In this document: piece by piece, positions 42,289-42,925 of the stretch
Layout of the letters: each line of letters opens with the position of its first letter
Position numbering within the stretch: the first letter of the stretch is position 1
Assembly: GCF_024223415.1 (NCBI RefSeq)
Contig: NZ_CP100500.1
Length of the DNA stretch: 64,000 nt
Source of the DNA: Escherichia coli
GTDB taxonomy: Bacteria; Pseudomonadota; Gammaproteobacteria; Enterobacterales; Enterobacteriaceae
Strand: one strand, 5' to 3'
Made by a program: the position numbers and the translations under genes
The notes under the pieces: generated by a model
Seen by the model: the letters and a program-made list of their open reading frames with translations, nothing else
Told to the model about the DNA's origin: nothing
The model's database searches: none

Positions 42289-42866
42289 ATGAGTGAAAAA
42301 AGCATTGTTCAGGAAGCGCGGGATATTCAGCTGGCAATGGAATTGATCACCCTGGCGCTCGTTTGCAGATGCTGGAAAGCGAAACACAGTTAAGTCGCGG
42401 ACGCCTGATAAAACTTTATAAAGAACTGCGCGGAAGCCCACCGCCGAAAGGCATGCTGCCATTCTCAACCGACTGGTTTATGACCTGGGAACAAAACGTT
42501 CATGCTTCGATGTTCTGTAATGCATGGCAGTTTTTACTGAAAACCGGTTTGTGTAATGGCGTCGATGCGGTGATCAAAGCCTACCGTTTATACCTTGAAC
42601 AGTGCCCACAAGCAGAAGAAGGACCACTGCTGGCATTAACTCGTGCCTGGACATTGGTGCGGTTTGTTGAAAGTGGATTACTGCAACTTTCCAGCTGCAA
42701 CTGCTGCGGCGGCAATTTTATTACCCACGCTCACCAGCCTGTTGGCAGCTTTGCCTGCAGCTTATGTCAACCGCCATCCCGGGCAGTAAAAAGACGTAAA
42801 CTTTCCCAGAATCCTGCCGATATTATCCCACAACTGCTGGATGAACAGAGAGTACAGGCTGTTTAA
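42289..42866 (+). pseudogene. flhC: flhC (flagellar master regulator subunit) interrupted by a -1 frameshift
   Basis: ATG at 42289 encodes [22 protein letters not shown] then shifts to a stop; the remaining FlhC sequence ([14 protein letters not shown]... Cys cluster) is the separate-frame ORF 42363..42866; span is 578 bp. Confidence 0.8.
42797..42823 (+). promoter_or_regulatory. sigma28 promoter for motAB-cheAW, inside the 3' end of flhC
   Basis: TAAA-N15-GCCGATAT read from sequence. Confidence 0.7.
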
Positions 42867-42925
42867 CTGATACGGTGAGGCGCAACATTCCAGCAGCGGT
42901 AACGACGTACCGCTGCTTTTTTTTG
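42831..42925 (+). ncRNA. Candidate MotR-type sRNA (sigma28 promoter to terminator, about 95 nt)
   Basis: sigma28 promoter followed about 90 nt later by agcagcggt-aacgacgt-accgctgct hairpin and T8 run upstream of motA. Confidence 0.45.

Follow-up and report, generated by a model that had tools for sequence, protein, structure and literature searches.

The closest described relatives of the locus analysed here are MotR and FliX, two small RNAs of Escherichia coli K-12 (Melamed et al. 2023, eLife 12:RP87151, PMC10578931). MotR is an Hfq-bound, FliA-dependent RNA of about 95 nt, the longer bands of which represent read-through of its terminator, and the motR promoter within flhC also serves motAB-cheAW (PMC10578931). 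By means of a central seed, MotR pairs within the coding sequences of rpsJ and fliC, and it raises the levels of S10 and fliC mRNA as well as the number of flagella; mutation of the seed abolishes these effects, and in a compensatory mutation test for rpsJ binding was not restored (PMC10578931). FliX-S, the approximately 100-nt version of FliX, is covered by a primer that starts inside the REP-containing part (PMC10578931). The FliX seed lies just 5′ of the terminator, as can be taken from the chromosomal FliX-M1 primer SM644, which changes the triplet GCA in GUCAGCAACG / AATTTGTCAGCAACGTGCTT to CGU (PMC10578931). UhpU and FlgO are likewise sigma28-dependent and UTR-derived, and resemble MotR and FliX in that the flagellar sigma factor gives rise to Hfq-binding RNAs that derive from mRNA UTRs by cleavage or termination. 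An opposing pair of flagellar sRNAs, FlmE and FlmR, is known from Campylobacter jejuni (PMC11187230) and has been cited as the analogue of MotR and FliX (PMC10578931). This is an analogy only, the sequences being unrelated and the sigma-factor hierarchies different.

We analysed a stretch of 64,000 nt from an E. coli contig (NZ_CP100500.1, assembly GCF_024223415.1), which is termed the window in the following and numbered from its first base. It contains the E. coli flagellar region in the order fliF-E ... fliD, fliC, fliA, fliZ ... flhDC, motAB, cheAW, tar, tap, cheRBYZ, flhBAE, inverted in orientation with respect to K-12. Strain a7 is the closest complete E. coli genome, with 99.2-99.9% identity to the window, and exact copies of the FliC protein of the window are found in many assemblies. 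UhpU and FlgO differ from the RNAs considered here in that their loci, uhpT and flgL, lie outside the window, with which they have no sequence in common. Taking the two flagellar loci together, we are highly confident that the MotR gene of this strain is intact but would be unexpressed, and that its fliC 3′ UTR is a short allele and not FliX. The coordinates of the features are compiled in Table 1.

Table 1. Positions of the regulatory elements, genes and sRNAs in the window
Feature	Coordinates	Strand	Evidence and remarks
fliC 3′ UTR, 42 nt	18181-18222	+	19-nt tail (18181-18199) and terminator
fliC terminator, CCCCGCCAACGGCGGGG and T6	18200-18222	+	BLAST of K-12 fliX and terminator scan; corresponds to FliX nt 172-194
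flhC pseudogene	42289-42866	+	1-bp deletion GGG to GG at 42353-42355 versus K-12 (alignment, translation)
sigma28 -35 box, TAAACTTT	42797-42804	+	consensus scan; within flhC codons K-L-S; identical to K-12
sigma28 -10 box, GCCGATAT	42816-42823	+	consensus scan; within flhC codons A-D-I; identical to K-12
MotR sRNA, 95 nt	42830-42924	+	95/95 identical to K-12 ncRNA motR b4828 (BLAST)
MotR seed region, bounds approximate	42870-42883	+	primers SM467/SM468; GUG at 42875-42877 is the M1 triplet
MotR intrinsic terminator	42892-42924	+	10-bp stem 42892-42917 with 6 G-C pairs, U-run to 42924
motA	42993-43880	+	ORF list; intact, 99.7% identical to K-12; first gene of the motAB-cheAW operon
SdsN	23077-23213	-	K-12 annotation
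3′ETS-leuZ	29096-29162		K-12 annotation
AzuR	32909-33067		K-12 annotation
AsflhD	41739-41957	-	K-12 annotation
MicL	61385-61692		K-12 annotation

Identity of the MotR gene

On the basis of sequence identity, the segment 42830-42924 is the already published and annotated MotR, and its recognition in the window is a rediscovery. In the K-12 reference (RefSeq NC_000913.3), ncRNA motR (b4828) is annotated at 1977208-1977302 with a length of 95 nt and overlaps the flhC 3′ end. Alignment of the window with K-12 over 216 nt (42780-42995), comprising the promoter, MotR and the motA 5′ UTR, revealed zero differences. The first 37 nt of MotR overlap the 3′ end of flhC and the remainder corresponds to the flhC-motA intergenic region and the motA 5′ UTR, the RNA ending on the same strand between the flhC stop codon (42864-42866) and the motA start (42993). 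The experimental material published for K-12 can be placed on the window as well. The 5′-phosphorylated motR cloning primer SM001 (PMC10578931, supplementary file 3) begins with ACAACTGCTGGATGAACAG, as does the window segment from 42830 onwards, and the MotR-M1 mutagenesis primers SM467 and SM468 change GTG to CAC at nt 46-48, equivalent to 42875-42877; the MotR* site UGC at nt 6-8 is present, as implied by the complete identity.

A sequence-only reading of this DNA had proposed a MotR-like RNA transcribed from a sigma28 promoter inside the 3′ end of flhC and ending at a strong intrinsic terminator upstream of motA. Both signals were recovered, the promoter at 42797-42823 with two mismatches in a scan that exceeded chance, and the terminator with a stem at 42892-42917 and a T-run to 42924. 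The naming of the RNA proved to be understated, given that the comparison with the published and RefSeq-annotated MotR yielded 95 identical positions out of 95, with primers SM001 and SM467 matching. The end of this RNA had been put at 42925; a length of about 95 nt and an end at the terminator hold, but the U-run stops one base earlier, at 42924. With MotR published in 2023 and included in the annotation of the K-12 reference, the identical copy described here carries little weight as a discovery. The locus resembles that of K-12 (b4828; eLife 12:RP87151, PMC10578931) in the 95-nt sequence, the sigma28 promoter in flhC, the terminator, the seed and the neighbouring genes flhC and motA, and differs from it in that the window strain has a frameshifted flhC, with the driving sigma28 cascade predicted to be off.

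The sigma28 promoter inside flhC

At the sequence level, the sigma28-type promoter shared by MotR and motA, TAAACTTT-N11-GCCGATAT, is situated within the 3′-terminal part of flhC, and its -10 box ends 6 nt before the mapped +1 of MotR. The whole window was scanned with the sigma28 consensus TAAAGTTT-N11-GCCGATAA, allowing up to three mismatches and using 100 shuffles as a control. Six sites were obtained, compared to 0.67 expected from the shuffles, none of which (0/100) reached six. The promoters of fliD, fliC and tar are among the remaining sites, and the pattern therefore picks out real class-3 promoters in the window. Two matches on the minus strand with three mismatches each, one at 24423-24449 beside the end of an IS1 element and one at 39567-39593 within otsA, are probably due to chance.

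The conservation of the promoter was assessed in one genome per bacterial species using a codon-degenerate pattern of the FlhC C-terminus (GCN GAY ATH ATH CCN CAR YTN YTN GAY GAR CA), which retrieved 114 loci, all from Enterobacterales. Although the search pattern permitted 24 variants at the -10 box (GCN GAY ATH), GCCGATAT was read in 114 of 114 species, and TAAACTTT, located outside the search pattern, was present at the same spacing in 113 of them. Third codon positions within both promoter boxes were invariant (111-112 of the 112 loci with enough flank), while those of the spacer and further upstream varied freely in the same loci. Judged from this alignment, the invariant synonymous sites are the signature of a promoter that constrains the coding sequence. 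The locus offers a clean demonstration that, in more than 100 enterobacterial species, synonymous sites are held fixed by a sigma28 promoter embedded in coding sequence.

Terminator and structural conservation of MotR

The MotR terminator sits 68 nt upstream of motA and, by its position, should also end flhDC transcripts. In the predicted fold of MotR the hairpin is found at the 3′ end, and the fold of the whole RNA is only modestly better than that of shuffles (z = -1.8). A terminator of the E. coli type (CCAGCAGCG...CGCTGC followed by a T-run) was identified in 80 of the 114 loci, resulting in predicted RNAs of 91-96 nt. The genera that carry it include Escherichia, Salmonella, Citrobacter, Enterobacter, Lelliottia, Kosakonia, Buttiauxella, Cedecea, Atlantibacter, Franconibacter, Mangrovibacter and Phytobacter, and among the genera sampled it was found only in those of the Enterobacteriaceae type. 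In approximately 30 loci from Serratia, Pectobacterium, Brenneria, Samsonia and Prodigiosinella, the promoter is unchanged but followed by other hairpins that lack a clear U-tract. The conservation of these hairpins in Serratia, Pectobacterium and Brenneria suggests a structured motA leader and not the same sRNA. Escherichia whittamii and Escherichia sp. E1V33 have a MotR-like hairpin with an interrupted T-run (TTATTTT), and this interruption may weaken termination.

The consensus structure of a 66-sequence alignment consists of the terminator and an invariant 5′ hairpin of 3 bp, and of nothing else. The terminator stem is paired in about 99.2-99.4% of the cells of this alignment, in comparison to 14-63% when the partners were slid, and compensatory changes occur at three inner terminator pairs (10 cells). 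Given that the outer stem motif had served to select the aligned sequences, the covariation of the inner stem is the only independent evidence among these values. An Rfam scan (release 15) of the whole window at the gathering score returned no family match at the MotR locus or the fliC 3′ UTR.

The flhC frameshift and the predicted silence of the locus

Due to the deletion listed in Table 1, flhC reads as 22 native codons followed by 12 out-of-frame codons and a stop (34 codons). The caveat, raised earlier from the sequence, that flhC might be inactive is thus substantiated by the 1-bp deletion relative to K-12 and by the pseudogene call of PGAP in other genomes. Five complete STEC-type genomes, including SMN013SH2 and 2014C-3011, carry the identical deletion, and PGAP labels their flhC as 'frameshifted'. 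Because these five genomes reach only 98.7% identity with the window and exhibit extra stops in cheA, cheZ and sdiA, the lesion in the window is probably independent of theirs and recent. The deletion at 42353-42355 may therefore be recurrent.

In the established hierarchy, fliA is among the class 2 genes activated by FlhD4C2, and the class 3 genes are driven by FliA. MotR would be transcribed from the sigma28 (FliA) class-3 promoter within the terminal flhC codons and end at the terminator upstream of motA, and read-through of this terminator would yield the motAB-cheAW mRNA. With flhC frameshifted, FlhD4C2 and in turn FliA would not be formed, so that the MotR promoter and fliC should be silenced; the transcription of MotR and fliC in the window strain is thus predicted from the frameshift to be probably off. 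The sigma70-driven flhDC transcript also carries the MotR sequence at its 3′ end, and traces of a MotR-containing RNA could arise independently of FliA by processing of this transcript. Furthermore, an internal ATG of flhC at 42369, which has no evident Shine-Dalgarno sequence, might give an N-terminally truncated FlhC.

The frameshift resides in a short G-run and might reflect a sequencing error or revert, and all other flagellar and chemotaxis genes of the window that were compared with K-12 are intact, which would fit a functional flhC, by assembly error or frameshift bypass, and a normal expression of MotR and fliC. We consider this unlikely, given that the same deletion is present in five independent complete genomes with flhC annotated as a pseudogene, and that assembly errors do not typically arise from a GGG run. 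An inactive flhC, and with it a silent MotR promoter, is the reading preferred here.

The fliC 3′ UTR and its alleles

While FliX of K-12 (b4827) comprises 195 nt, the entire fliC 3′ UTR in the window has a length of 42 nt. BLAST matched the window to FliX over nt 172-194 only, that is the 23-nt terminator with one mismatch, and nt 1-171, which include the REP-containing body, the FliX-S 5′ end and the seed, had no match in the window by alignment or BLAST. At the site of the seed, direct reading revealed UUUACACUUAUCGCUCAAA instead of GUCAGCAACG, and the window carries TTTACACTTATCGCTCAAA in place of the seed and the upstream body; the seed is absent. MAFFT had placed the 3′ coding end of fliC on the 3′ part of K-12 FliX, a placement that was spurious according to BLAST and direct reading. 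The terminator, with a stem at 18197-18219 and a T-run to 18222 in the terminator scan, folds with -16.3 kcal/mol (z = -4.1). In RNAduplex predictions, the duplexes of the K-12 FliX seed region beat shuffles on rpsS and rpsQ (z = -2.6, 0-2 of 100 shuffles), whereas the 19-nt tail of the window paired with none of the coding sequences of rpsS, rpsQ, rplC and fliC above chance (z = +0.5 to -1.0).

The UTR therefore has in common with FliX (K-12 b4827, PMC10578931) its origin and the homologous end formed by the fliC terminator; it lacks nt 1-171, to which the REP body, the seed and the start of FliX-S belong, and no pairing with rpsS, rpsQ or rplC is predicted here. The missing body and seed, the length of 42 nt and the lack of pairing by the tail argue that the fliC 3′ UTR of the window is a terminator with a 19-nt tail and not an orthologue of FliX, and it would not be expected to act as FliX. 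The sequence-only reading had seen a fliC 3′ UTR with a terminator at 18181-18222 and had called it FliX-like. A strong terminator is indeed present and the position agrees, but only 23 nt of the 42-nt UTR are common to both RNAs. The call itself is not supported, as only nt 172-194 align with the published FliX, the M1 seed is missing with the rest of nt 1-171, and the pairing of the tail with the validated FliX targets did not exceed chance.

Among 5426 complete E. coli genomes, the short-form junction of the window is present in 861 (16%). The K-12-type FliX seed together with the terminator was detected in 3509 genomes by sensitive blastn (2840 by megablast), and the seed is lacking in about 35%, or about a third, of the complete genomes. 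At least three forms of the fliC 3′ UTR exist in E. coli, namely the long FliX form of K-12, the short form of the window and a second short form (TGGCCTTAACCTGCCTGA), and all three share the terminator as well as the fliA promoter region that follows it. The short fliC 3′ UTR is hence a common allele that is not peculiar to the window strain. Since FliX is polymorphic in E. coli and absent here, the K-12 model of MotR and FliX as an opposing pair is not transferable to every strain. There is a small chance that the presence of FliX is tied to the flagellin allele, making it an accessory sRNA and not a fixed part of the E. coli flagellar circuit, or that the short UTR is a different 3′-UTR RNA. 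If FliX is accessory, strains without its seed would have MotR acting without the published antagonist.

It is quite unlikely that the short UTR gives rise to a distinct, allele-specific and Hfq-binding RNA of approximately 42 nt, either with a seed unlike that of FliX or as an Hfq sponge. Such an RNA would be in line with the strong terminator, the tail of six U residues and the unpaired state of the first 16 nt of the 19-nt tail in the predicted fold, and also with the occurrence of an identical tail in three genomes that differ in the loop and downstream bases and of the junction in 861 genomes. However, pairing with fliC or genes of the S10 operon did not exceed chance, Rfam homology was not found and homology to FliX comprises the terminator only, and the tail is very short and has no known processing site. 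The third form, which is short and has another tail, argues for hitch-hiking with the allele rather than for selection. We thus regard the short UTR as a variant fliC 3′ end.

Function of the MotR element

Duplex energies calculated by RNAduplex for the MotR seed region and the first 450 nt of fliC were no better than those of shuffles (23/200 for K-12, 80/200 for the window allele) and have no bearing on the conservation of the fliC target site, and unrestricted runs with MotR were likewise uninformative. This result, the variation among genera of the region between promoter and terminator, the location of the hairpin where flhDC transcription must end, the need of motAB-cheAW for a promoter in any case, and a conservation of promoter and terminator that cis roles would explain equally well, are all compatible with an element that is cis plumbing only, consisting of the flhDC terminator and the motA promoter and leader, with the 95-nt RNA as a by-product of premature termination that has no function in trans; this is nevertheless very unlikely in view of the Hfq co-IP, the RIL-seq chimeras, the loss of effect upon M1 mutation of the seed and the reduced number of flagella of the chromosomal motR-M1 mutant, all reported for a K-12 sequence identical to that of the window (PMC10578931), and of the central GGUG(U/A)GG core of the seed region, which is widely conserved and unpaired in the consensus structure. 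The MotR gene of the window is consequently regarded as that of a trans-acting sRNA.

Other elements of the region

Besides three tRNAs, the Rfam matches in the window comprise MicL and C0465, and no others. The C0465 match (47316-47393, minus strand, 111.6 bits) is located between cheW and tar, where it overlaps, on the opposite strand, the tar promoter, which is a perfect sigma28 consensus (47383-47409, plus strand). The K-12-annotated sRNAs MicL, AsflhD, AzuR, 3′ETS-leuZ and SdsN are present with 97-100% identity (Table 1), and of these Rfam flagged MicL only. Comparison with K-12 and strain a7 revealed a single IS1 copy in the stretch covered. A Shigella origin, for which this IS1 and the presumed non-motility might speak, is disfavoured by the low number of IS1 copies and by the intactness of all other flagellar genes compared. 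This IS1-family element (24464-25233) lies between sdiA/yecF and uvrY, is 91% identical to K-12 IS1H and about 96% identical to an IS1 of strain a7, and has removed the first 15 nt of yecU. An intact ORF of 402 aa was observed at 8603-9811 on the plus strand. Its syntenic orthologue in strain a7 has an internal stop and is annotated as an IS200/IS605-associated InsQ/TnpB RNA-guided endonuclease.
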